In this document: one piece after another, positions 14,681 to 64,000 of the stretch
Position numbering within the stretch: position 1 is the first letter of the stretch
How the letters are laid out: every line of letters starts with the position of its first letter
The notes under the pieces: generated by a model
The model's input: the letters and a program-made list of their open reading frames with translations, nothing else
Told to the model about the DNA's origin: nothing
The model's database searches: none
Position numbers and translations under genes: made by a program
Origin: a virus
IMG/VR virus record: IMGVR_UViG_3300022752_002834
Location: 54,292 to 118,291 of that record
Length of the DNA stretch: 64,000 bases
Strand: one strand, 5' to 3'

Positions 14681-15011
14681 CTATATAGCTCCTATTAGTT
14701 TTAGTCAAAAATATTCTATTTCTGGTTAAAAGATAATTGTTATAGTTCTCAAATGTTGTGCCTGACACTGGTTTTAATTCTGTTCTATTCCAAATTTCTC
14801 TACCAGCTTCTGGACCAAATGGATCTAGTGGCACACTGTTAAATATTCTAACAAAGTACTTGTTTTGAATTTTGCCATTACCTAAGTTTATACTTAGTGA
14901 CTTTGAATATACTTTTTCTTGTTTTCCATCTGTCATTTCTCCGCGAATATTAAAAAACGCTTCTGTTGTTTCTTTGGTAATTTTTTGATCGTGAGAGTCT
15001 ATAAATTTCAT
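14673..15011 (-). CDS. Hypothetical protein
   Basis: Overlapping start/stop with neighbours. Confidence 0.6.
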   Translation of the reverse strand: MKFIDSHDQKITKETTEAFFNIRGEMTDGKQEKVYSKSLSINLGNGKIQNKYFVRIFNSVPLDPFGPEAGREIWNRTELKPVSGTTFENYNNYLLTRNRIFLTKTNRSYIDG

Positions 15012-16840: not shown

Positions 16841-17290
16841 TTAGATTCCAGAGCTACCAAAGCCTTTATCTCCTCGTTGCGAGGAACCTAACGTTTCATG
16901 GACCTCCATAGTGACGCGAGGAACCTCTTGGAATATAATCTGAGCGATTCTATCCCCGGTAGATATACTAACATTTTCTTCCGAAGTGTTGTATAAGCAC
17001 ACCATTATCTCTCCTCTATAACCGCTATCCACTACTCCAGCTAAAATATCTATGCCGTGTTTAACAGATAGGCCCGATCTAGGCCAAATTAAACCAGCAA
17101 ATTGTTCTGGCATTTGTATTGCTATCCCAGTTCTGACAGTCTTGCGTTGTTTTGATGGTACTATGGTGTCGATGGCGGAATATAGATCCCAGCCAGCATC
17201 ATTAGTATTTGCTCTCGTTGGAGTTTTTGCCATAGAATCAAGAAGTTGAATCCTTATTATATCATAATCAAAAAAATCATCAACAATCAT
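16841..17290 (-). CDS. dut: Trimeric dUTPase
   Basis: AGWDL, PRSGL, GVVDSGYRGEI, DRIAQ, RGDKGFGSSG. Confidence 0.96.
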   Translation of the reverse strand: MIVDDFFDYDIIRIQLLDSMAKTPTRANTNDAGWDLYSAIDTIVPSKQRKTVRTGIAIQMPEQFAGLIWPRSGLSVKHGIDILAGVVDSGYRGEIMVCLYNTSEENVSISTGDRIAQIIFQEVPRVTMEVHETLGSSQRGDKGFGSSGI

Positions 17291-37496: not shown

Positions 37497-37577
37497 TGGT
37501 GTGTGAAGGATTCGAACCTCCGAAGTATACACATCTGATTTACAGTCAGACCCCTTTGACCGCTCGGGAAACACACC
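37497..37577 (-). tRNA. tRNA-Tyr(GTA)
   Basis: GGTGTGT/ACACACC acceptor stem, CT-GTA-AA anticodon loop, GGTTCGAATCC T arm, long variable arm. Confidence 0.92.
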
Positions 37578-43879: not shown

Positions 43880-43890
43880 ATTATACATAG

Positions 43891-44243
43891 TGGAGGCGAG
43901 GGGAGTCGAACCCCTGTCTTGCGATATGTCTAACTATATCTTCTACAAGTTTATTTTGTTCATAAGTTTTGAGAAAGATTAAAGAACAAACAACATTTAT
44001 CTTTCCGTACCAACTAATCTCAGGCTAGAACCCGTTGGCTATTCTAACAGCCGAAGGATTTTACGACAATCTTTTGAACGCTACCTTCATCGCTTTCTAA
44101 GATTGTTGCTACTTTTTATTAAGCAGCAAGAGCTAACTGAGTTTCGCCAGTTAAAGCGTTTAATCGACTTTTAAAGTGGCCGGTCGATCAACCACTACTT
44201 GCTGATATAATCTTCTATATCCAATCGATACCGTTACGCCCCC
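43891..44243 (-). ncRNA. ssrA: tmRNA; tag peptide (A)GETQLALAA
   Basis: 5' GGGGGCG pairs with 3' CGCCTCC-A, including the G3:U alanine identity pair; GGTTCGACTCC T arm; tag ORF 44148..44119 with tandem TAA stops. Confidence 0.93.
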
Positions 44244-50348: not shown

Positions 50349-50867
50349 ATGGAAGTAAACTGTAAAAACTGCAATAAAGTATTCGATAAAAATATAACAC
50401 AAATTCGTAGAACTAACAATAACAATTTTTGTAGTAGAAGTTGCTCTGCAACATTTAATAACAAGAAATATAAAAGAGTTAACTTAAAACCTATGGAAAA
50501 AACAGTTAAAAAATATTCTAATTGTAAACGGTGCGGAATTGAGTTAGATTACAAAAAAAGGCGTATGTTGTGTAAAAATTGTAAGGATACGCAAGATAAA
50601 ACATTGGCTGAAATAGCTTATGATCAACATCATAAATCTTCCTGTTGGGCTTTGGTTAGATCACGGGCCAGATCAATAATGAAAGATAAGCCTAGAGTAT
50701 GTGTTAATTGTGGATATAATAAACATGTTGAGGTTGCTCATATCAAATCTATTAGTGAATTTGAATTAGACTGCCTTGTGTCAGAAGTAAACAATGAGAG
50801 TAATCTAGTTTTATTATGTCCCAATTGTCATTGGGAATTTGATCATAACTTAATTAGTATCAAGTAG
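50349..50867 (+). CDS. HNH endonuclease inserted antisense within the tRNA cluster
   Basis: Several CxxC knuckles (FCSRSC); CVNCG...VEVAHIK...NLVLLCPNCH. Confidence 0.88.
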   Translation: MEVNCKNCNKVFDKNITQIRRTNNNNFCSRSCSATFNNKKYKRVNLKPMEKTVKKYSNCKRCGIELDYKKRRMLCKNCKDTQDKTLAEIAYDQHHKSSCWALVRSRARSIMKDKPRVCVNCGYNKHVEVAHIKSISEFELDCLVSEVNNESNLVLLCPNCHWEFDHNLISIK

Positions 50868-50938
50868 GAGTAGTCGGATTCGAACCGACACTTGCAAAAT
50901 TTTAAGTTTTGTGACTCTTCCGGTTGGTCTATACTCCC
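50865..50938 (-). tRNA. tRNA-Leu(TAA) with short variable loop
   Basis: GGGAGTA/TACTCCT-A acceptor stem, CAAAA-CT-TAA-AA-TTTTG anticodon arm, GTCGGTTCGAATCCGAC T arm. Confidence 0.9.
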
Positions 50939-53043: not shown

Positions 53044-54288
53044 CTAGAAAAGTTCTTTGATTACCTTACCGCTATTAGCAATCTTCATAGGTCTTCCATT
53101 CTTAGAAGTAAATGTTGTCTCTAATGATATTCCTAAACTTCTCAAAACACTAGCCATTAAATCTTGTGAAGTGTAGGCTTCTCCAATCACTTGCTTACCA
53201 TCTTCGCTCGTTTGACCAATAGCAATACCTGTCTTAAAATCAGCACCACCAACAACAACACTCCAACTTCTGGCCCAATGATCACGACCAGCATTACCAT
53301 TAATATTTGGTGTGCGACCAAACTCTCCCATCCATATAATTGCTGTGTCTTGTAGTAGGCCGCGACTATCTAAGTCTTCGATTAATGCACTCATCGCCTT
53401 GTCCATTTCTGGAAACTTTTGGTTTTCTAACGTTGGAAAAATATTAGCATGGTTATCCCAACCGCCCAAGTCTACTTCTATAAACGGAACCCCTGCTTCT
53501 ACTAATCTTCGTGCCATTAAGCATCCACGACCAAATCCAGTATTACCATATCTTTCTCTTACTTCTGTTGGTTCTTTTGCAACTTTAAATGCTTCCATTT
53601 GTGGACTTGTCATAAGTTTTACTGTTTTGCTTAAAACCTTCATGTGATCACTAGCAAAGTCTCCACGTTTTTGTGATATAAACTGATCTTCGATAGACTT
53701 TAGCATTGTTAATCTTTGGTTCAGTCTATTTTGATCTATACCCATATTAAGATCACGAATATTTCCGTTGCTATCAACAACAAACGGGGCATAACTCATA
53801 CCAAGAAATCCCGGCCCAACGCTACCGCCTCCTACGCTCACAAAAGGTGGAATTTCTAATTCTGGAATTTGATCAATCAACTCATGGGATATAACACTAC
53901 CATAACTAGGATAATCTATGGTTGGGCTTGGAACATATCCAGTATGCATATAATATCGTCCGCGACCATGATCGGCCTCTCTAGTACTCATATTTCTTAT
54001 GATACTTAGCTTGTCCATGTTTTTAGCAAGCAAAGGTAAGTGTTCGCATATTTGAACACCATCAGCATTTGTGTCTATTGGCCTAAATGGACCGCCAGTA
54101 ACTCCACCAGATTTTAAATCCCAAATATCTATGGTGCTTGGGCCACCACTCATCCATAAAAGAATTGCACTTTTATGTCTCTTCTTTAAGTCAGAAGAAT
54201 TTGCGAGTATAGTATTGGTAAAATTTGTTGCTGGAATTGATAGTGCTGAAGTGGCAGCTAAATGTGATAAGAAATGTCTTCTATTCAT
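53044..54288 (-). CDS. DUF1501 family protein with Tat-like signal
   Basis: MNRRHFL; LWMSGGPSTIDIWDLK; CLMARRLVEAGVPFIEV; GWDNH; GEFGRTP; GRDHW. Confidence 0.92.
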   Translation of the reverse strand: MNRRHFLSHLAATSALSIPATNFTNTILANSSDLKKRHKSAILLWMSGGPSTIDIWDLKSGGVTGGPFRPIDTNADGVQICEHLPLLAKNMDKLSIIRNMSTREADHGRGRYYMHTGYVPSPTIDYPSYGSVISHELIDQIPELEIPPFVSVGGGSVGPGFLGMSYAPFVVDSNGNIRDLNMGIDQNRLNQRLTMLKSIEDQFISQKRGDFASDHMKVLSKTVKLMTSPQMEAFKVAKEPTEVRERYGNTGFGRGCLMARRLVEAGVPFIEVDLGGWDNHANIFPTLENQKFPEMDKAMSALIEDLDSRGLLQDTAIIWMGEFGRTPNINGNAGRDHWARSWSVVVGGADFKTGIAIGQTSEDGKQVIGEAYTSQDLMASVLRSLGISLETTFTSKNGRPMKIANSGKVIKELF

Positions 54289-54504: not shown

Positions 54505-54704
54505 TATTCTGGTTCATCTGTATCTAAGAACATTGATAACATTTCGCATTTAGATTTCCAATAATTCATCTCTAATGCTTTATCTAACAGTTGTTCCATC
54601 ACGACAGCGGCTTCATTTAAAAGATCTGATCTATCTATAGCCCTTGCTTGCTTAACTGAGCTTTTCAAGGACTTAATAAGATCACGTACTTCCTTTTCAT
54701 TCAT
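54504..54704 (-). CDS. Hypothetical protein
   Basis: Small ORF. Confidence 0.5.
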   Translation of the reverse strand: MNEKEVRDLIKSLKSSVKQARAIDRSDLLNEAAVVMEQLLDKALEMNYWKSKCEMLSMFLDTDEPE

Positions 54705-55798: not shown

Positions 55799-56128
55799 TT
55801 ATTTAGATTGAAATATCATACAATTTTCTTCACTATCCCATGTAACTTCTAGTTTATCCGCAGAAGCCATTTTTGCAAGCTGAATTCCTAAAACCCAATT
55901 TTTGATTTCTGTAAATATCTTTTGCAATATCATAGTATTCATCAAATATTGGTCATCTTGGCGAATGCAATATTGTTTTATAATTGAAGAAACCTCTTTG
56001 GGTTTAATATAGCTACTCATTTCTTCGATAGGAATAAGCATTTCCTTTGCAACATCTTTACCAATATGTTTTGCTATCTTTTTTATGCTCTTTACCTTGA
56101 CCATCTTTTCATCATTCATATCTGACAT
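55799..56128 (-). CDS. Hypothetical protein
   Basis: ORF with RBS. Confidence 0.55.
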   Translation of the reverse strand: MSDMNDEKMVKVKSIKKIAKHIGKDVAKEMLIPIEEMSSYIKPKEVSSIIKQYCIRQDDQYLMNTMILQKIFTEIKNWVLGIQLAKMASADKLEVTWDSEENCMIFQSK

Positions 56129-57033
56129 AGTTGTTCCTCCATATGCTTGAATATTGCTTTGTCTTTCATCTTTAGCTCAAAGTCAAGATCAAAGTCAAGA
56201 TCGTGCGTGTCAATAGAATTATAAGCAAAATCGGCGTGCGCTCTTGGATTGTTACCGGGGCGACTCTCGCTATAGTGGAACAGCGGTTTAAAGCCCTTCC
56301 AAGTGGCGTGACAGGCCCGTATAGCCTCTTTCTCAGTAAGACCGTCTGGATGGCACTTGTGGTGCAAATAATCAAACGTGATAGGTATATTGGTTGCTGG
56401 GTAGAATAGTTCTGTTAGCTCTTTTACAGACCAGCAATTTACCTTATCGTCATTTTCGATAACAAGTCTGCTACGACAATTGCTATCAAGGCGAGAATAA
56501 TTGGAGAGAAATCTAGCAATAATACTATCATGGTCGCCAGTTTTGTTATGTACGTGCAAATTCATTGGTGATCGGTAGTCGGCTGGACATCCGATACGGT
56601 CCATGAATGCAGAATAGAAATTAAGTTCTCTGATTGTCTTTTGTACCGCTTGCTCGTTTTCAGATGCCAATACATTGAACTCGCTAGGGTGACAAGAAAT
56701 ACGGACCCCAGTATCGGAAATAGTCTTTTGAATAAAATCAAACCCAACCTGTATTTTGTCATATTGTGGAAGATCCTCTAATGTTACATTTGCAAGGTCA
56801 TATGTTATCAATGGAAATAGATCACTACTCAGTCTATAACACAGGTCATTGTCCGCACAATGCTGTATGGTTACACAAGTAGCGATCATATTATGGAATA
56901 TACGGTCGCCCAATATGTCTAAAGCCTCGTCACGGTCTAAGGACGAGAATCTTTTATAAGTCATGGTCTTGAACTTAACTGGATCGTCAAGTTCTTGTAA
57001 TTCTAGCGAAATGCAACAAAGCCCGTACCGCAT
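56116..57033 (-). CDS. uvsE: UV damage endonuclease (UvsE/UVDE)
   Basis: YRLSSDLFP, RISCHP, LVIENDD, FDYLHH, HYSES, AHAD, ELKMKD. Confidence 0.92.
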   Translation of the reverse strand: MRYGLCCISLELQELDDPVKFKTMTYKRFSSLDRDEALDILGDRIFHNMIATCVTIQHCADNDLCYRLSSDLFPLITYDLANVTLEDLPQYDKIQVGFDFIQKTISDTGVRISCHPSEFNVLASENEQAVQKTIRELNFYSAFMDRIGCPADYRSPMNLHVHNKTGDHDSIIARFLSNYSRLDSNCRSRLVIENDDKVNCWSVKELTELFYPATNIPITFDYLHHKCHPDGLTEKEAIRACHATWKGFKPLFHYSESRPGNNPRAHADFAYNSIDTHDLDFDLDFELKMKDKAIFKHMEEQLCQI

Positions 57034-57058
57034 ACATTGTCTCCTGTGTGTCTATGCT

Positions 57059-57087
57059 ATTCTACATCGACACAGCAGGGTTGTCAA
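57059..57087 (-). promoter_or_regulatory. sigma70-like promoter for uvsE
   Basis: TTGACA-N17-TAGAAT with CGAT in the spacer. Confidence 0.65.
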
Positions 57088-57344
57088 CTGTTGTTTTTCT
57101 TCCAAGAGAATAGATTGTTTAGGTAGGCTTTTCTTTTACTACAATTGCATTCCTTAAGATTAAACCACGACTTGAATCTTTCTTCTGTAATACCAACAGT
57201 CTTTAGTACAGATTCCACCACATCCCCAAGGCCCGTTGTGTCTTCTTGTTTATGTGCATTAGGATTGATACCTAATCTCTCTAATTCTTTTATAGCCTTA
57301 TCCATCTCTTGTTTAATAGAGTTATTTTCTTCTCTTGCTGTCAT
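57084..57344 (-). CDS. Conserved phage hypothetical protein
   Basis: GLGDVV...GI...CNC..RK..LN motif. Confidence 0.65.
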   Translation of the reverse strand: MTAREENNSIKQEMDKAIKELERLGINPNAHKQEDTTGLGDVVESVLKTVGITEERFKSWFNLKECNCSKRKAYLNNLFSWKKNNS

Positions 57345-57695
57345 TTTTTTCTCCCTAGTTTGTGGGTTTTATTCCCATTTACTATGTTTTTTTGTAGTTT
57401 TCTGTGGGTCGTTAACCACAATCTTACACTATATTATACACCCAAAACGGTCATAAAACGGGTGGTTATACGAATAGCCTGTATGTGCATTTAACACTAC
57501 AAAATACGATATAGGATAGTAAGAGTATACATAGTAGACATACATACAATACAACAAAGGCTATGGCTGAAAATATATTGAAATTCAACCTGGATATTTC
57601 ACATAATATATAATTATTGCATATCTGTTTCATGTTTCATCGTATCTGTATAGGGTGTATGGAGGATAGAGAGTAGGTATGTATGTATAGAAAAT

Positions 57696-57731
57696 GACCC
57701 CTGCTATCCAGAATATAGGACAACAGGGGCC
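57696..57731 (-). terminator. Intrinsic terminator
   Basis: GGCCCCTGTTGTCC/GGATAGCAGGGGTC stem followed by ATTTT. Confidence 0.65.
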
Positions 57732-57737
57732 AAAAGG

Positions 57738-58034
57738 TTAGTCTTGCATATGTGTAAGGGCGTAGTCTACCATACTAATATACTGGTCTACTTGTCTTGG
57801 TGTGAGTTCCTTACCATTAGCAGCAAGAGCGTGTCTATATGCTAATCGTTCCCTTTTAGTCATAGTAGTAAGATCTTTAAGCTCATTGATATAATTCTTG
57901 TCTTTTATCTTAAGAATACTCTTCATTGTCTTATAAGTATCATCATCTTTGTAGTCTTCGTCGTATAAAGTACTCATATATTCGAAAAATTCTCGTTTAT
58001 TGACCATTTGAACGTACTCCTTATGATTTTTCAC
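57738..58034 (-). CDS. Hypothetical protein
   Basis: ORF. Confidence 0.5.
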   Translation of the reverse strand: MKNHKEYVQMVNKREFFEYMSTLYDEDYKDDDTYKTMKSILKIKDKNYINELKDLTTMTKRERLAYRHALAANGKELTPRQVDQYISMVDYALTHMQD

Positions 58035-58082
58035 CTCAAAAGGGGCGAAACTTTATGTTTTATGGGCCTTTATCTTATAATC

Positions 58083-58526
58083 TCAGCGTAAAACGGGCCT
58101 AATTGGAGTATTGACTTTTAGTAGTTTATGTGGACTTCTATACATATTTGGGATAGTATCAGAAGCAACTTCTGGTCCCATGTATATATACCCGTATCCA
58201 CCATCGTATACTCGTAACCCCAAGTCATCCTTGTCTTGTACTGTATATACTCCCATATCAGTAAGGTACTGACGTTCACCATCACCATTAACATAGTAGT
58301 TACCAGATCGGCCAACAACCTTTACTCTGTCTCCTTGCTTAAGAGATCGCCAATCCTCAATCTCTTCATACTTCTTAACCTTAACCTTCTTTGTCTTCTG
58401 TGGCTTATTACTATTAGCAACAAACTCGTTTCCACAATGTTTACAAACATGAGATCGTGCGCCATTAATCCCATTACATTTCTTACAAAGTTTTTGACCA
58501 CGCTTCAATTTCATAATTATCTCCAA
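58083..58526 (-). CDS. Zinc-ribbon hypothetical protein
   Basis: CKKC...CKHC. Confidence 0.65.
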   Translation of the reverse strand: MEIIMKLKRGQKLCKKCNGINGARSHVCKHCGNEFVANSNKPQKTKKVKVKKYEEIEDWRSLKQGDRVKVVGRSGNYYVNGDGERQYLTDMGVYTVQDKDDLGLRVYDGGYGYIYMGPEVASDTIPNMYRSPHKLLKVNTPIRPVLR

Positions 58527-58589
58527 ATGCTAAAGTCACTGACTACCAGTACAGGCCAGATCTGAATTATTTAGGTGAGACAGCCCTTG

Positions 58590-58618
58590 ATTATACATCG
58601 GGTTTACCAGCTTGTCAA
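58590..58618 (-). promoter_or_regulatory. Consensus sigma70 promoter
   Basis: TTGACA-N17-TATAAT. Confidence 0.8.
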
Positions 58619-58684
58619 CTTTAAAAAACCCAAATCTCACTGACTACCAGTAAAGGCCAGATCTGATTATATAGGGTGAGACAA

Positions 58685-58912
58685 TCATGCGATTATCTTA
58701 AGTTCACCAGTATTACTATTAAAAGAAGTAAAGAAGCTCTTGCTGATATACTTACCTTCTATACCATCAATGAGTCGCTTACTATATATGTTAACGCGCC
58801 ACCGGTCATCGTATACGTTCATGCTCTTGCACATAAGATAATCCTTTGGCTTCTCTGTATGATTAAAGATTACATCACACGGAGTAATATCGTAGTTATT
58901 TATTTTCTTCAT
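58685..58912 (-). CDS. Hypothetical protein flanked by repeats
   Basis: Small ORF. Confidence 0.6.
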   Translation of the reverse strand: MKKINNYDITPCDVIFNHTEKPKDYLMCKSMNVYDDRWRVNIYSKRLIDGIEGKYISKSFFTSFNSNTGELKIIA

Positions 58913-59098
58913 TGGAAATCCTTCTATTATATTAATCGTAAAATATCAAATCTCACTGACTGTATTGCAATATGTTGATCTCGACGCTTCGCGTGAGACA
59001 CCCCACGATTTCGTTAGATTACCCAAGTCTCCCAGCTTAACATATGAGAGAATACGATAATCCCGTACCCCCATTATACCTTATCGACATACTGAACG

Positions 59099-59226
59099 CA
59101 AGTCCTTGAGAGGAAACAACTTACGTCAAATGGTTCTATAAAATGACGTAACCCCTTGAAAATAAAAGACTTATGAATCCGGCGGCGGGCCGCGTTCGCC
59201 CTAAACCCTTGTGGGGCAAGGACTTA
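59099..59226. repeat. Cluster of three 25-bp 9-7-9 palindromes
   Basis: 59099-59123, 59149-59173 and 59202-59226; consensus TAA(A/G)YCCTT-N7-AAGGACTTA. Confidence 0.88.
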
Positions 59227-59243
59227 GAGCAAATCGCGTTTTC

Positions 59244-59582
59244 CTAGATAGAATCGAAGTAGGCTTTGGCTTCCTTCATCTTTTCTTGAATGCCCTTGTG
59301 TACAGGCGTATCCTTATTTACCTTTTCGTATTCTTCGATCACGGGCGGTTCATAATCACAAGTATAAAACCCCGCATTTTGTTCAAGGTAATCCATACTT
59401 ACCTCGCCCAAAAGTTCGTGAAGTTCGTCAGGGTCTTTTGCCTCTACTACAAACTTGGCCTTTTTGGCTTCAACATAGTTCATCGTTACTTGATACTTTG
59501 GCATATTATATTCCTTATAAAGTAGTGAGAGCGGGATGGCGGGCGAAAGAAAGATATATTCCCGCCACCCCAACCCTCCCAC
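59244..59582 (-). CDS. Hypothetical protein
   Basis: Likely start at the internal MPKYQVTM, preceded by AAGGA. Confidence 0.55.
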   Translation of the reverse strand: MGGLGWREYIFLSPAIPLSLLYKEYNMPKYQVTMNYVEAKKAKFVVEAKDPDELHELLGEVSMDYLEQNAGFYTCDYEPPVIEEYEKVNKDTPVHKGIQEKMKEAKAYFDSI

Positions 59583-59585
59583 TAA

Positions 59586-60812
59586 CTAAGCGTTAAGACT
59601 GTAAACCTTCTCGTAATCCTTGTCGGTGAACGTATCCGCACGACGAAGGATGGTTGCCCAGCGGTCAGCGGACGTTGCCATTAGACTGCCAGCAATCTCA
59701 TCGAACTTGACCCATGTAGTATTATCAAACTTCTGACCAGCACGGGTCAAGCCGTTGATGATACCGAACAGGTTACGATTTCCAGCCTCATATTCTCCAT
59801 ACTGATTAAGGAACTCCGTAGCCTCACGCTTGCTCAGTTTATAATCCGAAGCAACCGACGCCACGATACCCTTAATACTAGCCTTACCAGTTTCCATCGA
59901 ACGGGTAGCGAGGAACTGCTTGATACCCGGAGCGAGGAGCGGAATCTGGTGTTGGATATTCCTAGCGATTTCCAACTTCAGACTATCAAGGTCGATATTA
60001 CCGCGATGAACCTTGCGAATCTTTTCGCCAGAAGTCTGACCCCAGATGCAACCGTTCATGCAAATCGCACGAAACAAACTAGGCGTCTGACTAATGCGGC
60101 GAGTACCGATCTCGCAGTTACCCACACTAATCATACCACCGTAATCACTATCGTCCGCACCATAGTCCATAATGGTATCGGGGATAAGAACATTACCATA
60201 GATGGTATCCTCATCGCCACGCCAGTGACTAAAGCGACCGCCGGGAATAAACTCCGACAGCACTTCCAAATACCACCGATTATCAATCGGAGCATACTTG
60301 TCGGTCACGAACGCACGGCAAGTACCGTCCGTATAAGTACGCAGCCGGAACTGCTTGTCGGGATCAACGTGACGCAACGCATTGTTACCAACGATAGCCA
60401 TAGTATTAGCATCGCCAGCGTCGAAATCCTCACTCTTTCGCATCTCACGCAAAAACGTGGACGAAGGAATATCGCTACGCACACTAAACTGCTCAATAGC
60501 ATGATCGGTCGGGCGGAACTTGCGACCATCATTCAACTGAAGATAGAAGTGTCCCTTGTCGGCAACACAAGCAATATCCTTGGTGGCAACCATGATATCT
60601 TCACGATTTTCCACAGCCATCTGACAGGCTTGCATAACCTGCTCATAGGTCTGGGTCTTTGCCCACCAATCCTTATGAACGTGCGTACCATCTTGAAAAC
60701 CCGTACCGGTAGCACCTTGAAGGGTGCGAACAAAAGAGCCAGCATTGGGATCGCTATTAATCTGCAACTTCTCGTAACTCATAATCAAACTCCTAGTAGT
60801 GGGAACTAACAA
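59586..60812 (-). CDS. DUF932-like protein
   Basis: RAFVTDKYAPIDN...NCEIG...LFRAICMNG...H...NGLTRA. Confidence 0.75.
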   Translation of the reverse strand: MLVPTTRSLIMSYEKLQINSDPNAGSFVRTLQGATGTGFQDGTHVHKDWWAKTQTYEQVMQACQMAVENREDIMVATKDIACVADKGHFYLQLNDGRKFRPTDHAIEQFSVRSDIPSSTFLREMRKSEDFDAGDANTMAIVGNNALRHVDPDKQFRLRTYTDGTCRAFVTDKYAPIDNRWYLEVLSEFIPGGRFSHWRGDEDTIYGNVLIPDTIMDYGADDSDYGGMISVGNCEIGTRRISQTPSLFRAICMNGCIWGQTSGEKIRKVHRGNIDLDSLKLEIARNIQHQIPLLAPGIKQFLATRSMETGKASIKGIVASVASDYKLSKREATEFLNQYGEYEAGNRNLFGIINGLTRAGQKFDNTTWVKFDEIAGSLMATSADRWATILRRADTFTDKDYEKVYSLNA

Positions 60813-60819
60813 CTCTCGT

Positions 60820-60847
60820 ATTATACAGGATCATTCGGCATTGTCAA
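60820..60847 (-). promoter_or_regulatory. sigma70-like promoter
   Basis: TTGACA-N16-TATAAT. Confidence 0.7.
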
Positions 60848-61064
60848 GGTCGGAAAACAAACTATCGAAACACGATCCACAAGTATTAGAAATAAGCAAC
60901 TCACGCTCATTCGCGGAAAGATAATCTAATACTTTTTCAATCGGGCCGGAACCGCTCATCCAATCAATAACGTCCTCTTTATTGACAATAATGGAAATAA
61001 TATTGCCACACTTCCAGCACTGGCAATCCATCACAAATGAACGATCTTGGTATGCCGCAACCAT
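60831..61064 (-). CDS. Small zinc-binding hypothetical protein
   Basis: CWKC...ERELLIS.TCGSCFD. Confidence 0.65.
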   Translation of the reverse strand: MVAAYQDRSFVMDCQCWKCGNIISIIVNKEDVIDWMSGSGPIEKVLDYLSANERELLISNTCGSCFDSLFSDLDNAE

Positions 61065-61081
61065 GTTTCACCTTTTCCACG

Positions 61082-61110
61082 ATCATACCATACAGTATCG
61101 GCACTGTCAA
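61082..61110 (-). promoter_or_regulatory. sigma70-like promoter
   Basis: TTGACA-N17-TATGAT with CCGATAC in the spacer. Confidence 0.7.
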
Positions 61111-61139
61111 GCCTCTACCATTAGAAATATTTTTTGACG

Positions 61140-61217
61140 TAAACCCTTGGTATCAAAGGACTTATGTCGAGCGGGGCGGGCCGCATCGGCCCTAAACCCT
61201 TATGGGGCAAGGACTTA
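61140..61217. repeat. Pair of 25-bp 9-7-9 palindromes, 53-bp period
   Basis: 61140-61164 and 61193-61217, joined by a GC-rich linker containing GGCGGGCCGC. Confidence 0.9.
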
Positions 61218-61220
61218 AGA

Positions 61221-61475
61221 TCACCCGTCAAACTCTTCTATTTTTCCAGTAGAAGGCTCACGAACTTTTAGAAAAGCCCATGATTCCATATGTTTAGTAC
61301 TTTCATCTGGATATTGAGGCATAAGATCACTACATTTGTTCATAGCGTCTTCAATAGATTCACAATCACGCATAACAATATCAACAGTAAGATAGTGGTA
61401 CATATTAGACTTTCTGGTAGTAGTTATCGAACACTTCCTGCCACGTTGGAAACTCATAGAACGGATCGCCCTCAT
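61221..61475 (-). CDS. Hypothetical protein
   Basis: Likely start at the internal MYHYLTV. Confidence 0.5.
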   Translation of the reverse strand: MRAIRSMSFQRGRKCSITTTRKSNMYHYLTVDIVMRDCESIEDAMNKCSDLMPQYPDESTKHMESWAFLKVREPSTGKIEEFDG

Positions 61476-61614
61476 TCACGCAAACGCCCGTCTTATCATT
61501 ATAAATGTCATAGAAAGAAACATTCCTCTTATCCATATCACGCAAGGACTCATAGCAAGCGTATACGCTAAACGTAACATCGTCCATAACATATGTAGCA
61601 ACTAGTTCATTCAT
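61405..61614 (-). CDS. Hypothetical protein
   Basis: GGAG RBS. Confidence 0.55.
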   Translation of the reverse strand: MNELVATYVMDDVTFSVYACYESLRDMDKRNVSFYDIYNDKTGVCVNEGDPFYEFPTWQEVFDNYYQKV

Positions 61615-61943
61615 TGGTTATACTCCCTTACGTCTATAATGTTATCTTCTGTCAACTGACCAAAAAACTCGGGGTCTTCATATACCGTGTTATTTATGAA
61701 ATCTGCGATTTCTTCTTTGGTTGTTAGTTCTTCCATATTATGGATATGAAAGTACATCATGATTTTGACTTCTTTGATATTCATATGCTTATCCAGTTTG
61801 GTTGGGGGAATATTGGTACTTTATAACATGACACAAAACTATTCCTATTTATTTCTTATCTTGATACAGCAAACTCCAAACGAATATCATAATCATGAGT
61901 TCTAGCAACTAATCTCCCTAAGTGAAATGATAACATAACACAG

Positions 61944-62019
61944 TAGGGCGTGTACGAGTCGAACGTACCTATGAACACCTTATAAGAGTGTCGGATGCAA
62001 CCGGCTTACCTTACGCCCC
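61944..62019 (-). tRNA. tRNA-Ile(TAT)
   Basis: GGGGCGT/ACGCCCT-A acceptor stem, ACACT-CT-TAT-AA-GGTGT anticodon arm, GTACGTTCGACTCGTAC T arm. Confidence 0.85.
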
Positions 62020-62039
62020 GTGAACGAGTGACCCGCACC

Positions 62040-62068
62040 ATTATAGCACGGGCCACTCGCTCTGTCAA
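62040..62068 (-). promoter_or_regulatory. Consensus sigma70 promoter for tRNA-Ile
   Basis: TTGACA-N17-TATAAT; the -10 lies in the loop of a CGAGTG-CCCG/CGGG-CACTCG inverted repeat. Confidence 0.75.
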
Positions 62069-62074
62069 GGGAGA

Positions 62075-62293
62075 TCAGCGATAGCAGGACGTTTCCAGCA
62101 TCTTAGAAAACAGGAGCGTTCGCACAGTATTATCCATAGCACGAACCACAGCATACTTACCATTCGGGCCAGTACCAACACGCTCAACACGACCCGTGTG
62201 GAACTTCAGAATGTTCCTATTACCATGAAGCGGATACTTGCAGCGAATGTGACGATCCTTCTTCAGACTAGCAAAGTTATTCATTGTAATCAA
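62075..62293 (-). CDS. Hypothetical protein
   Basis: GGAGG RBS. Confidence 0.55.
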   Translation of the reverse strand: MITMNNFASLKKDRHIRCKYPLHGNRNILKFHTGRVERVGTGPNGKYAVVRAMDNTVRTLLFSKMLETSCYR

Positions 62294-62453
62294 CCTCCAA
62301 AAACTTCTTTTTCAACTTGCGAGAAAGTCACGTTGACCTTCTTCCCTTGACAATCAACCACAACACCCTCGCGGGTAATCTTCACAACAGTACCAACTTT
62401 GAGTTTAGTACCAATACCAACAATCTTCATTTCATTTCTCCTTGACGTTACTA

Positions 62454-62825
62454 TCACCACCAACTATCGTACACCACGGTCAACCCATTGTCAAGAGCCT
62501 CGCGGGCCTTATTGACAAAATCCAGATCCTGTCGCTTGTAATAGTCATCGCTATCACTACCGAAGAAAAATCCTACGGTTTGTGGCAAACCAGATCCACG
62601 CACAGCATCTTCTAGATCGTCCAAATCTTCCTTGGTCAACTCTAGCGGAATACAGTTGAACTCGCTCATGCCCATACCATCTTCATCTTCGCGGCGACCG
62701 GGACGGCCCTTGCTTTCCCAAAGGTTTTCCATCCAGCCTTGAAGATTAGGATGCTTACGCCAGTAGGCAAGTTCTTCCTTCGATCCGTTACTACTAACCG
62801 CAAATGCAAACTGATCTAAACCCAT
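62454..62825 (-). CDS. Conserved phage hypothetical protein
   Basis: MGLDQ...YWRKH...GFFFG...YDSWW pattern. Confidence 0.7.
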   Translation of the reverse strand: MGLDQFAFAVSSNGSKEELAYWRKHPNLQGWMENLWESKGRPGRREDEDGMGMSEFNCIPLELTKEDLDDLEDAVRGSGLPQTVGFFFGSDSDDYYKRQDLDFVNKAREALDNGLTVVYDSWW

Positions 62826-62936
62826 TATAAATCTCCTAGTTAGTGGTGGTTAGAGCCGATACTAGATTACTAGCGATTCCGATCTAAGCGTGGCGTTCAT
62901 CTAGTATCGACATTCTAACCGAACGACTTTAGAAAA

Positions 62937-63212
62937 TCAAGCCTCGACCGTTTCGGCAACCTCGGCCTTGGGAGCCTTGGGCGGCTTCGGAGTAGCAAGG
63001 CTCACGCCAGCCACACGCTTCGCCCACACCTTGTAACCCTGCTCCTTCATAACCTCAGTCTTGACACCATGAACCGCACACAGCGTACCGATACCGTCGA
63101 TAGCAGCGAGCAGCGAACCACGAACACCCTCAACGTCAACGCCAACCGGCGAATCAGTCACAATATCAACCGTAAAAGAAAACTTCTGCATAATCATCTC
63201 CTTTGTTATCAA
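62937..63212 (-). CDS. Hypothetical protein
   Basis: GGAG RBS before MQKFSF. Confidence 0.55.
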   Translation of the reverse strand: MITKEMIMQKFSFTVDIVTDSPVGVDVEGVRGSLLAAIDGIGTLCAVHGVKTEVMKEQGYKVWAKRVAGVSLATPKPPKAPKAEVAETVEA

Positions 63213-63239
63213 GTTAGTGTTATCAACCTTACTCCAATG

Positions 63240-63268
63240 ATTCTACTATGTAGTATCGGCCTTGTCAA
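63240..63268 (-). promoter_or_regulatory. sigma70-like promoter
   Basis: TTGACA-N17-TAGAAT with CCGATAC in the spacer. Confidence 0.7.
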
Positions 63269-63298
63269 GCACCGTTCTTGAAAAAATATTTTTTGCTC

Positions 63299-63376
63299 TA
63301 AGTCGTTGTGGCGTAAGGACTTACGACAAATCCGGCCCCCGGCCTTGTTCCTAAATCCTTACCCAGCAAGGACTTA
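63299..63376. repeat. Pair of 25-bp 9-7-9 palindromes, 53-bp period
   Basis: 63299-63323 and 63352-63376; the final TTA is the stop codon of 63374..63745. Confidence 0.9.
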
Positions 63377-63745
63377 CGACAAGTACCCTTCGCAACCAAG
63401 CGATGTCAGGTCACGCAGCAACTGCTCGGCCTTTTCGGGAGTGCTAAGAGTAAGACTGATGGCCTTTCCACCATCACGCCAATGTCCGCTCTCGTCGTAG
63501 CGACCAACCATGCCATCGGTCCAATCCTTCGATTCCTTCAATCCCCAGCCGGTGTGCTGTCGAACAGCCTTGATGCAAGGGATACGATTGTTTGTATCCA
63601 TGCCGTCAGTGATAGTAACCCTACGCTTCTGGTTCACGCCCAAAGCCACCTCCAGCGCACACACGATCTTCTCGTACATGTCCAGATGGCAACCGTTCGA
63701 CACCAGATTCAGAGCCTCACGAACACTCAGTTCAACCTTAATCAT
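63374..63745 (-). CDS. Protein with a ribosomal L7/L12 C-terminal-like domain
   Basis: NRIPCIKAVRQHTGWGLKESKDWTDG...EKAEQLLRDLTSLG resembles KIxVIKAVRxxTGLGLKEAKDLV. Confidence 0.75.
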   Translation of the reverse strand: MIKVELSVREALNLVSNGCHLDMYEKIVCALEVALGVNQKRRVTITDGMDTNNRIPCIKAVRQHTGWGLKESKDWTDGMVGRYDESGHWRDGGKAISLTLSTPEKAEQLLRDLTSLGCEGYLS

Positions 63746-63984
63746 ATTCCAAAACTTTCTGTATACTTAGGGTTTATTTCGCTAATACCGTCAAAACTAC
63801 CGTTACGCTCTTCTAGAATATAAACTTGCTTACCATCGGTAATCAAGGTATCATATTCCGTTCCATCCCAAATGAACTCGTTATTGTCGCTTTCTCGTCG
63901 CCAGTGTGGATCACGAAGTGGATTATAAAACAACTTCTCAAGATTGTCAACAGGCAGAGCGGGATAAAAATCCTTCCTCAACAT
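63742..63984 (-). CDS. Hypothetical protein
   Basis: Small ORF coupled to the next gene. Confidence 0.5.
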   Translation of the reverse strand: MLRKDFYPALPVDNLEKLFYNPLRDPHWRRESDNNEFIWDGTEYDTLITDGKQVYILEERNGSFDGISEINPKYTESFGI

Positions 63985-64000
63985 AACTTCTTCACATCGC

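Follow-up and report, generated by a model that had tools for sequence, protein, structure and literature searches.

Early gene blocks of this viral genome are bounded by paired 25-bp palindromes at an exact 53-bp period, which are placed at fixed helical positions upstream of sigma70-type promoters. At about even confidence, we read the element as a paired operator platform at which a putative, probably phage-encoded protein would regulate early promoters, with a secondary role as a junction for module exchange. Shut-off or attenuation seems a somewhat better guess than activation for the direction of control. The element behaves as duplex DNA, its half-sites flanking a 7-bp spacer of unconstrained sequence, and not as a hairpin.

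Anatomy and distribution of the paired palindromes

The seven sites listed by the first-pass annotation are all present in the window, that is, the whole 64,000-nucleotide stretch of DNA that was analysed. A window search for TAANNCNTT-N7-AANNACTTA (at most one mismatch) places them at 59099, 59149, 59202, 61140, 61193, 63299 and 63352. Nine pattern matches fall at these seven places, two of which match on either strand, and shuffled controls (n = 100) gave a mean of 0.43 matches and a maximum of 4, with none of the 100 reaching 9. The three exact 53-bp pairs (59149/59202, 61140/61193 and 63299/63352) and the G+C-rich 28-bp linkers within them were confirmed, as was a spacer of fixed length and variable sequence, all seven window spacers being mutually different. 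A pair of palindromes with its linker forms a rigid 78-base unit. The site at 59099, 50 bp from that at 59149, has one mismatch (CAA in place of TAA). Throughout the 118,291-bp record, the exact pattern is confined to the window clusters (6 forward and 1 reverse matches), whereas a backwards control pattern gave 0 matches in the same record; the sole further AAGGACTTA lies within a gene at window position 54667 and has no partner.

All genes and promoters in the cluster region are on the minus strand, and the clusters cut it into blocks of about 2 kb, as had been described. Each cluster lies 0–18 nt past a stop codon and just before a near-consensus sigma70-type promoter, also as claimed; the further statement that one arm supplies the TAA holds only at 63352, the other stops being 4 and 18 nt away. 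A canonical terminator at 57732-57695 is among the hits of the consensus terminator scan.

All features that follow are on the minus strand. Cluster 3 consists of a promoter-distal palindrome at 63352..63376 (TAAGTCCTT-GCTGGGT-AAGGATTTA), whose final 3 nt (TTA, 63374-63376) are the TAA stop of ORF 63374-63745, a G+C-rich 28-bp linker at 63324..63351, and a promoter-proximal palindrome at 63299..63323 (TAAGTCCTT-ACGCCAC-AACGACTTA), whose promoter-facing arm, AACGACTTA, is the same as in relatives. The A/T tract AAAAAATATTTTTT at 63281..63294, which we take to resemble an UP element, separates the proximal site from the -35 hexamer of a sigma70-type promoter, TTGACA-17-TAGAAT (11/12), at 63240..63268; the gap from site to -35 hexamer is 30 bp. 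Cluster 2 has its distal palindrome at 61193..61217, 4 nt from the stop of the upstream ORF 61221-61475, a G+C-rich 28-bp linker at 61165..61192 that includes GGCCCGCCCC, a proximal palindrome at 61140..61164, an A/T tract at 61125-61135 and, after a gap of 29 bp from the proximal site, the promoter TTGACA-17-TATGAT (11/12, with TG) at 61082..61110. Cluster 1 holds three palindromes: the distal one at 59202..59226, 18 nt from the stop of the upstream ORF 59244-59582, the second at 59149..59173 beyond a G+C-rich 28-bp linker (59174..59201), and a degenerate third at 59099..59123, 50 bp from the second, which is kept in the relatives G005 and G003. The promoter that follows, TTGCGT-17-TATAAT at 59073..59101 with GTCGATAAGG in its spacer, has a -35 hexamer of which 3 nt are overlapped by the third palindrome. 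This promoter was read by eye from the sequence, and is absent from the consensus scan list because its -35 hexamer matches at only 3/6 positions; this -35 variant was also seen by eye in relatives.

The 53-bp spacing, which was to be sought beyond this genome, is conserved across many phages. A single-site pattern scan of IMG/VR returned at least 152 viral stretches, and a strict two-site pattern (20 fixed bases) was found in at least 225 stretches of IMG/VR contigs, its matches always clustered within one early region. Among the 152 loci listed, the commonest distance between neighbouring sites is 53 bp (60 cases), followed by 52 bp (8) and 50 bp (5), and a partner at ±53 bp accompanies 67 of 153 anchor sites, compared with 2.3% of random 25-mers that attain an equal score. 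Sites are confined to 18.7-29.8 kb in G001, to 60.7-74.8 kb in G003 and, with two exceptions, to 27.7-41.5 kb in the 125-kb G004. In the record studied here (G000) they occur only in the final 5 kb; this record is 74% complete and its end falls inside the early region. Paired elements occur in bacterial data in only 10 contigs of 8 metagenome-assembled genomes, which bear 8 different taxon labels, and a search for paired elements in isolate bacterial genomes found none.

Half-sites, polarity and helical phasing

In the logo of partner sites, information is located at the TAAGT, TT, AA and ACTTA blocks and in the CG flanks, whereas the spacer carries about 0 bits. The half-sites are about 11-15 bp long with the consensus yGnCG-TAAGTCsTT, two per 25-bp palindrome, a layout that one would expect if the binding protein is a sequence-specific dimer. 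The module is polar: across 118 promoter-oriented elements, half-site variants are position-specific and the linker consensus is oriented. A promoter departs within 150 nt of 118 of the 215 distinct pairs; in a set of 211 pairs, 120 are flanked by a promoter on a single side and none on both. It is also evident that the distance to the promoter is quantised in helical turns, since the gap between pair and -35 hexamer peaks at 20 bp (19 cases), 30-31 bp (30), 41 bp (12) and 52-53 bp. A period of about 10.5-10.75 bp fits best (R = 0.685; 0 of 2000 random sets as high), in counts that include orthologous elements of related phages and so are not independent; a first, smaller pair set gave R = 0.63, likewise 0 of 2000. 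The strict promoter pattern used for the phasing set left out TTGCRW variants of the -35 hexamer, which were seen by eye and not counted.

Each cluster is a rigid module of about 78-90 bp, running in the order distal palindrome, 28-bp G+C-rich linker, proximal palindrome, CGWCAA, A/T tract and sigma70-type promoter. Two dimers would occupy the same helix face five helical turns apart, likewise separated from the downstream -35 hexamer by an integral number of turns, and the complex bound there may act on the RNA polymerase of the next early promoter; blocked read-through from the upstream unit would be a likely by-effect. A repeated nucleoprotein site for early transcription, one of the functions first suggested, agrees with the double-stranded half-sites, the conserved 53-bp spacing and the helical phasing to the promoter. 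The near-consensus promoters and the overlap of site 59099 with a -35 hexamer lean to repression, although the helical phasing would suit an activator equally well. That isolate bacterial genomes are without paired elements leans to a phage-encoded binder, and the promoter-facing arm, which is AACGACTTA in 6 of 6 G001 pairs and more often AACACTTTA in G004, differs by lineage in a way that fits a co-evolving phage protein. Against the platform reading, many early promoters manage without the element; between 56 and 64 kb, only 2 of 8 strong promoters on the minus strand have a pair. The suggested co-occurring DNA-binding protein did not emerge: Pfam and PHROGs searches of 107 window ORFs, another 19 from the same genome and 109 early-region ORFs of four relatives turned up no classical DNA-binding family, and no counterpart of the G004 HTH proteins was found in G000, G003 or G005. 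RNA-library contigs span cluster 1, showing neither ends nor strand.

Block boundaries and homology breaks

The location of the window clusters between a stop codon and a promoter would also suit an element whose main role is to bound transcription units, with bound protein or the DNA itself halting the incoming polymerase and the link to the promoter being secondary. Promoters within blocks carry no element, so the elements mark block ends and not every promoter; moreover, stem-loops have been shown to terminate transcription (available text of PMC2839356) in PeSLs, the promoter-early stem-loop cassettes of T4-type phages (PMC2839356, PMC4122927). We consider such a main role rather unlikely, as a U-tract is absent after every arm or linker, the consensus terminator scan lists no terminator at the clusters, selection for a hairpin was not found, and helical phasing to the next -35 hexamer is not needed by a pure boundary.

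Homology blocks shared by the window and its close relative G003 break off at 59226, at 61217 and within 63352-63376. G003 is without the 112-aa gene adjoining cluster 1 and has an additional 156-aa ORF adjoining cluster 2. Upstream of cluster 3, the 123-aa and 80-aa genes are 66% identical to the distant G004, whereas G003 shows 40% identity to the 123-aa gene and no match to the 80-aa gene; window 63240-63996 shares 69% DNA identity with G004. Long matches end at elements in 14 of 59 cases versus 3.0 expected from coverage, with reciprocal comparisons counted twice, and such ends may reflect gene boundaries in general. The synteny breakpoints to be tested for were found as ends of homology blocks at the sites, but not as rearrangements, gene order being collinear with the two closest relatives, G005 and G003. 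Being conserved and repeated, the module would also be a junction for the exchange, gain or loss of gene blocks among related phages, probably through ordinary homologous recombination as in PeSL cassettes. The idea of cassettes survives in this weak form, with homology ends and gene gain or loss at the elements, and loses its dedicated recombinase.

These block ends with gene gain and loss alongside, the genes upstream of cluster 3 that are closer to G004 than to G003, and the RecA and endonuclease VII homologues encoded by the phage would all fit repeats kept as homology patches for general recombination, like PeSLs, with no dedicated binding protein. This explanation is unlikely in our judgement: orthologous elements retain their arms through a full turnover of the 7-bp spacers and linker core, so that homology as such is not the conserved thing, and the fixed 7-bp and 28-bp lengths, position-specific half-sites and phasing point to a shape recognised by a protein.

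Strong bacterial promoters have upstream activation regions, which the position of the element above an A/T tract and its phasing resemble, and an activator of early genes must pre-exist any phage protein. It is nevertheless improbable that the phage boosts its early promoters by recruiting a nucleoid or architectural protein of the host (IHF, HU or a Fis-like factor) to the sites, given that WATCAANNNNTTR fits only 29 of 544 half-sites, none of 5 records yielded an HU/IHF gene, isolate bacterial genomes searched for pairs had none, and half-site preferences vary by phage lineage.

An RNA-level hairpin in early transcripts, acting as terminator, RNase III site or 3' stabiliser, is already disfavoured and very improbable. 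The window clusters fold somewhat better than shuffles (z -2.4 to -4.5), and 4 of 7 window sites pair fully only as minus-strand RNA, via G-U pairs, but plus-strand folds of the clusters are about equal in quality. Among 35 promoter-oriented elements, 83.5% of cells are paired versus 85.4% in shuffles (500 of 500 shuffles at or above the observed level), arm covariation scores 0.043 versus 0.068 in shuffles, and one inner position fails to pair in 22 of the elements, a second in 28. Pairing shows no strand bias (sense 7.51, antisense 7.54 of 9 positions), linkers of the 35 elements have no folding advantage over shuffles (mean z 0.02; 9 of 35 below -1), and an Rfam search with E up to 1 gave no match.

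There is equally little to be said for the idea that a site-specific recombinase uses the palindromes as core sites for cassette shuffling or exchange. The 9-7-9 geometry here, long arms around a free spacer, does suit tyrosine-recombinase core sites, and homology breaks coincide with the sites; known tyrosine recombinases, however, need matching spacers, and the spacers here differ at 7 of 7 window sites, comprise 187 distinct sequences among 272 sites and vary even between orthologous sites. Searches of 5 element-bearing records, one of them 89% complete, found no tyrosine recombinase (Phage_integrase), serine recombinase (Resolvase) or HUH (Y1) transposase domain in any, which extends to relatives the earlier remark that the window has no recombinase. 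The collinear gene order of G005 and G003 argues in the same direction, and the junction reads to be looked for came down to read joints at the sites with flanks of only 24-34 letters, which therefore look like cross-matches to other elements.

Relation to known systems

Upstream operator pairs act on polymerase from one helix face at the phage phi29 p4 sites of A2c/A3, which serve the early-to-late switch, and at CRP class I sites. These share with the present element dyads well upstream of -35, whole-turn spacing and paired dimers, but there are few of them, whereas dozens of copies per genome occur here; the half-site sequence is unrelated, the binder is here only predicted, and every copy additionally marks the boundary of a gene block. 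The conserved inverted repeats of phiC31 and the stoperators of mycobacteriophage L5 are multi-copy repressor sites in phage early regions. Similarly, many intergenic copies of a short protein site lie in one transcription region, with genome-wide control through a single phage protein, which is a prediction in our case. The phiC31 and L5 sites are single, in temperate phages with a known repressor, while those described here are paired, rigidly spaced and promoter-phased, and neither integrase nor repressor was found in this phage.

The CGTC-tagged REP dimers (REP/BIME), as far as the available text of PMC3733652 describes them, are likewise short palindromes with 8-9-bp arms starting with A/T pairs, CG-rich end tags, head-to-head dimers and conserved spacers, intergenic and after genes. 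They sit on chromosomes in high copy and form hairpins with 4-5-nt loops (PMC3733652), whereas our elements have a 7-nt spacer, pairing that is not conserved and a phage-borne distribution only, with no Y1 transposase found in 5 records. PeSLs, in the available text of PMC2839356 and PMC4122927, are also repeated composite elements between small early genes, with a near-consensus sigma70 promoter, an A/T-rich upstream tract and a G/C-run just upstream; they too are concentrated in a plastic, ORFan-filled region, gene gain, loss or replacement between related phages maps to them, and they have no recombinase. The PeSL has a single stem-loop that is a terminator, whereas here a G+C segment without excess folding lies between two 25-bp dyads with a 53-bp period and oriented half-site variants, and the -35 helical phasing seen here is not described in those parts of the two papers.

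The window element, from an uncultured phage of a lake, is one copy of a large, apparently undescribed family that recurs in many of its relatives. Early promoters would be coordinately controlled through it by a predicted, probably phage-encoded protein.

Palindrome clusters in the window

All seven 25-bp palindromes listed by the first-pass annotation were recovered by pattern search, with starts at 59099, 59149 and 59202 (cluster 1), 61140 and 61193 (cluster 2) and 63299 and 63352 (cluster 3). The seven sites give nine pattern matches in the window, as two places are matched on both strands; dinucleotide-preserving shuffles (n = 100) gave 0.43 on average and 4 at most. Across the whole 118,291-bp record the exact pattern is confined to these places, and a backwards control pattern gave no match. 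The anatomy described for the sites also holds: three pairs keep the exact 53-bp period, a 28-bp G+C-rich linker joins both sites of each pair, and the 7-bp spacer is constant in length and variable in sequence, seven sites carrying seven different spacers.

Each cluster follows the same order on the minus strand, namely gene stop, distal palindrome, linker, proximal palindrome, CGTCAA or GAGCAA, A/T tract and promoter. The sigma70-type promoter expected next to each cluster is present as TTGACA-17-TAtnAT with a gap of 29-30 bp at clusters 2 and 3, and as TTGCGT-17-TATAAT, a sequence absent from the consensus promoter scan list, at cluster 1. Read by eye, the third, degenerate site of cluster 1 overlaps the -35 hexamer of this promoter by 3 nt. 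The proposal that one arm supplies the TAA stop is correct only for the site at 63352, the stops at the other two clusters lying 4 nt and 18 nt away. The sole canonical intrinsic terminator of the region (57695-57732, minus strand), with a 15-pair stem and a T tract, is located at the end of the block downstream of cluster 1; the phage therefore employs ordinary terminators elsewhere.

The record is 74% complete, the window is its last 64 kb, and the contig ends within the early region. The phage is of the large lytic type. Its genes include a split DNA polymerase III alpha, DnaB, primase, RecA, PhoH, ribonucleotide reductase and ThyX, as well as endonuclease VII and rIIA/rIIB, and a phage-encoded DUF1501 protein of 414 aa lies at 53044-54288 (minus strand; E 2.6e-101). 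Two very long ORFs of 2376 and 3757 aa are on the plus strand outside the window, in the structural half of the genome (G000:C1:9629-28037 of this phage). One tmRNA (43890-44243, minus strand; tag peptide GETQLALAA) and three tRNAs are carried: tRNA-Tyr (37497-37577), tRNA-Leu (50864-50938) and, in the middle of the early region, tRNA-Ile with anticodon TAT (61943-62019, minus strand). Its own promoter, matching the consensus at 12/12 positions (62040-62068, minus strand), stands directly ahead of tRNA-Ile. The minus strand holds nearly all genes rightwards of about 40 kb, and the clusters sit there among small ORFan genes with many near-consensus sigma70-type promoters. Early promoters at 63240-63268, 61082-61110, 60820-60847 and 58590-58618, and those of relatives, share a conserved GnCGATAA block in the 16-17-bp spacer; a -35 variant, TTGCRW, is by eye frequent in the relatives. 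DNA of the stretch is present in freshwater and lake DNA runs of several studies. Cluster 1 is covered by RNA-library contigs in which neither ends nor strand are visible, and cluster 2 is without cover in the RNA run.

A polar and helically phased element in other phages

The single-site pattern TAAGTCCTT-N7-AAGGNNTTA matches at least 152 stretches of viral contigs, part of the matches to this 16-base pattern being due to chance. Among the matches listed, 53 bp is the commonest distance between neighbouring sites (60 cases), followed by 52 bp (8) and 50 bp (5), and a partner stands +/-53 bp from 67 of 153 anchor sites, while 2.3% of random 25-mers score as high. When two sites are required and 20 bases are fixed, the strict pattern matches at least 225 stretches, and the two-site matches listed yielded 215 distinct pairs. 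Relatives were mostly compared through flanks of 200-600 bp. In the five records examined whole, the sites are packed 1-2 kb apart in one region of 5-15 kb, with the exception of two A/T-rich matches in the distant relative G004. Only 15 stretches, on 10 short or phage-like contigs, carry the paired pattern among 185,579 species genomes. These contigs come from 8 metagenome-assembled genomes, each bearing a different taxon label, and we read them as binned phage contigs that are uninformative on the host. A literature search, to which subscription journals were outside coverage, found no account of this element, and a text search with four 9-mers gave only unrelated papers among the matches listed.

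In the closest relative, G005, 54 bp instead of 53 bp separates the sites of both orthologous elements (L181:15234-15312 and 17211-17289); one extra base is therefore tolerated. Two more repeats appear in relatives, in the flanks downstream of the elements at L200, L222, L283, L305, L307, L315, L358 and L370: an inverted TTGTCAAAATCTCTTGACA motif, and a string of TAGCAAAATGC-like units that separates the element from the gene after it.

The module is polar, since its four half-sites favour different variants (118 promoter-oriented elements among the matches listed). The distal-left half-site is TAAACCCTT or TAAAGCCTT, the distal-right AAGGACTTA, the proximal-left TAAGTCCTT or TAAGTGCTT, and the promoter-facing proximal-right AACGACTTA or AACAACTTA; the oriented linker consensus is GGGC.A...GGCCGGCC...TTyGaCG. 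Of 211 pairs among the matches listed, 120 have a strict promoter on one side only and 0 on both sides, and for 91 none was found; many of these 91 show the TTGCRW variant by eye, uncounted. The distance from proximal site to -35 hexamer, taken over 118 distinct elements among the matches listed, has maxima at 20 bp (19 elements), 30-31 bp (30), 41 bp (12) and 52-53 bp; minor groups lie around 61-65, 73 and 81-85 bp. The period fits best at about 10.5-10.75 bp, with R = 0.685, a value reached by 0 of 2000 random sets (R was 0.63 in an initial smaller set), although the phasing events are non-independent because the counts include orthologous elements of related phages. The in-phase spacing proposed for the site pairs thus extends to two levels, whole helical turns from site to site (53 bp, 60 cases) and from site to -35 hexamer.

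The logo of the partner sites, which is unaffected by the selection bias of anchor sites, reads G-n-C-G, TAAGT, two weak positions, TT, seven uninformative positions, AA, two weak positions, ACTTA and C-G-n-C. It describes what would be a pair of long half-sites on double-stranded DNA, typical of the footprint left by a dimeric protein. Together with the fixed, sequence-free spacer, these dyad half-sites argue for the repeated nucleoprotein site, or paired operators, put forward in the first-pass annotation. Two protein dimers would be held on one face of the DNA, and the bound pair would act on RNA polymerase at the next promoter. As judged from sequence, such an arrangement may best explain why the lengths are fixed, the spacer is sequence-free and the half-sites are position-specific, and why phasing occurs at two levels. 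A predicted shut-off or attenuation by a phage-encoded protein is favoured on four grounds: the promoters are near consensus, one site overlaps a -35 hexamer, the paired element was not found in cellular genomes, and half-site preferences vary by lineage. Activation by a host or virion protein is possible.

Pfam and PHROGs searches of the window, of 19 further ORFs of this phage and of 109 early ORFs of four relatives turned up no classical DNA-binding family. G004 encodes two HTH proteins, which have no counterpart in this phage, G003 or G005, and one sigma-like protein. Sigma-like proteins with a Sigma70_r2 domain are encoded at L185:8173-8802 (G004, 209 aa) and, in the related records, at G003:77165-77689, G001:16774-17295 and G002:12685-13317. 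The gene adjoins the start of the early region on the opposite strand in G001, G002 and G003, and is 6.6 kb away in G004. The available sequence of this phage holds none; the gene would fall past the contig end. Among early proteins, a 77-aa zinc-ribbon protein with four cysteines (60831-61064) is the most widely shared; its 35 homologues are all hypothetical. Its model has a confident fold (mean pLDDT 82.3), and no PDB structure matched at E 0.001; a Zn_ribbon_Brz match of the G001 homologue (E 0.0086) is below the cut-off and gives no evidence. In the Protein Atlas, the 123-aa and 147-aa early proteins match unnamed viral clusters only.

A sigma54-type motif, TGGCAC-N5-TTGC, follows an A/T tract in relatives, 9-15 nt from the proximal palindrome (L159:13672-13685 and 14947-14960, L160:10647-10660, L161:15149-15162 and many more among the matches listed). 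It is directed into the element, antisense to the early genes, and turns up at 27 of 142 pair ends, its backwards control giving 0; among the matches listed it accompanies 35 of 211 pairs, 27 of them without a strict sigma70 promoter nearby. The motif is not present beside the clusters of the window. We rejected a sigma54 enhancer (bEBP sites) on three grounds: the window clusters lack a -24/-12 motif, the motif of relatives faces the element, and PF00158 (Sigma54_activat) was found in 0 of 4 phage records.

Apparent mosaic junctions and rival explanations

The rivals to paired operators are a boundary element, a mere homology patch, a host architectural protein, recombinase sites and RNA hairpins. 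Gene order is collinear with G005 and G003, at protein identities of 40-93%. The elements nevertheless appear from the alignments to be mosaic junctions between relatives, and a match end at the edge of a conserved site is no proof of a precise cut. Homology blocks shared by the window and G003 stop at 59226 and at 61217, which are the outer edges of distal sites, and within the 63352 site; G003 is without the 112-aa gene adjoining cluster 1 and has an extra 156-aa ORF adjoining cluster 2. The promoter, element and two upstream genes at 63240-63996 share 69% DNA identity with G004, whose replication proteins are only 26-51% identical to those of this phage. When matches of at least 300 bp are taken over seven early regions, 14 of their 59 ends fall at elements, against 3.0 expected from coverage, a count in which reciprocal pairs are entered twice and to which an enrichment at gene boundaries in general may contribute.

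Binding by a host architectural protein was considered for IHF, and rejected: the consensus WATCAANNNNTTR fits only 29 of 544 half-sites. A search of the phage records for HU/IHF domains gave 0 matches.

The sites resemble tyrosine-recombinase core sites in having inverted arms around a 6-8-bp spacer, but differ from them in that the spacers of partner sites are not identical. There are 187 distinct spacers among 272 sites, and orthologous sites of close relatives carry different ones; known tyrosine recombinases require matching spacers. Domains of tyrosine recombinase (PF00589), serine recombinase (PF00239) and Y1 transposase (PF01797) were each found in 0 of 5 records, which are 12-89% complete. 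In assembled contigs, joints 59227>63306 and 63323>61191 have flanks of only 24-34 letters with other letters between, and are read as elements of other phages. The absence of a recombinase domain from the five records, the unlike spacers and the collinear gene order speak against the site-specific recombinase system suggested initially.

An RNA hairpin was at first attractive, since four window sites pair fully only as minus-strand RNA, via G-U pairs. It fails across the family, where the arms show no covariation in 35 promoter-oriented elements (score 0.043, against 0.068 in shuffles). Paired cells amount to 83.5% in these elements and 85.4% in shuffles, all 500 of which equalled or exceeded the observed value. 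Two inner arm positions lack pairing in 22 and 28 of the 35 elements; the outer five arm pairs are uninformative because the search pattern fixed them. Sense and antisense pairing are equal (7.51 and 7.54 of 9 positions in 70 sites), and the 28-nt linker folds at shuffle level (mean z 0.02; 9 of 35 below -1). RNA folds of the three clusters on both strands have modest z-scores, the predicted fold differing among clusters, and Rfam covariance models gave 0 matches in 56000-64000 at E up to 1.

Known repeats and early-region control

Among described elements, PeSL cassettes of T4-type phages (PMC2839356, PMC4122927) come closest, as far as the available parts of these reports go. Both have a strong sigma70-type early promoter with an A/T-rich upstream tract within the repeat, a G/C-run segment and a plastic ORFan region, and in both, gene gain, loss and replacement among related phages map to the elements. 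PeSL differs in its stable terminating stem-loop (G-run, loop, C-run), whereas the linkers here fold like shuffles. Mini-circles that arise through exchange of adjacent elements are a further PeSL trait; the assembled contigs here show joints at the sites with flanks of 24-34 letters. Relative to PeSL as presented in those parts, the long dyad pair at a fixed 53-bp period, the polarity, the helical quantisation and the lack of a selected stem-loop are new. Unlike REP/BIME sequences of the CGTC type, as described in the accessible part of one account (PMC3733652), these elements are without a conserved hairpin or chromosomal high-copy spread. GTAG types have a RAYT transposase, whereas the Y1 transposase domain occurs here in 0 of 5 records.

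It would be a long shot that a dedicated phage protein, early or virion-delivered, docks at the twin palindromes, sets all early promoters from a fixed helical face and also directs insertion and exchange of gene blocks to the distal site's outer edge. If true, lytic phages would possess an integron-like cassette system that is guided by a protein and needs no classical recombinase. The operator model is directly testable through the exact helical quantisation, and the 78-bp element is usable as bait for the regulator. The element also offers a sequence handle to locate, in metagenomic phage genomes, the early regions and the limits of transcription units, and a handle on early-gene swapping at fixed junctions in lytic phages. 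One rigid control module is common to hundreds of uncultured, mostly freshwater phage contigs, and, if the operator model holds, a single undiscovered regulator would govern whole early regions across a large phage clade.
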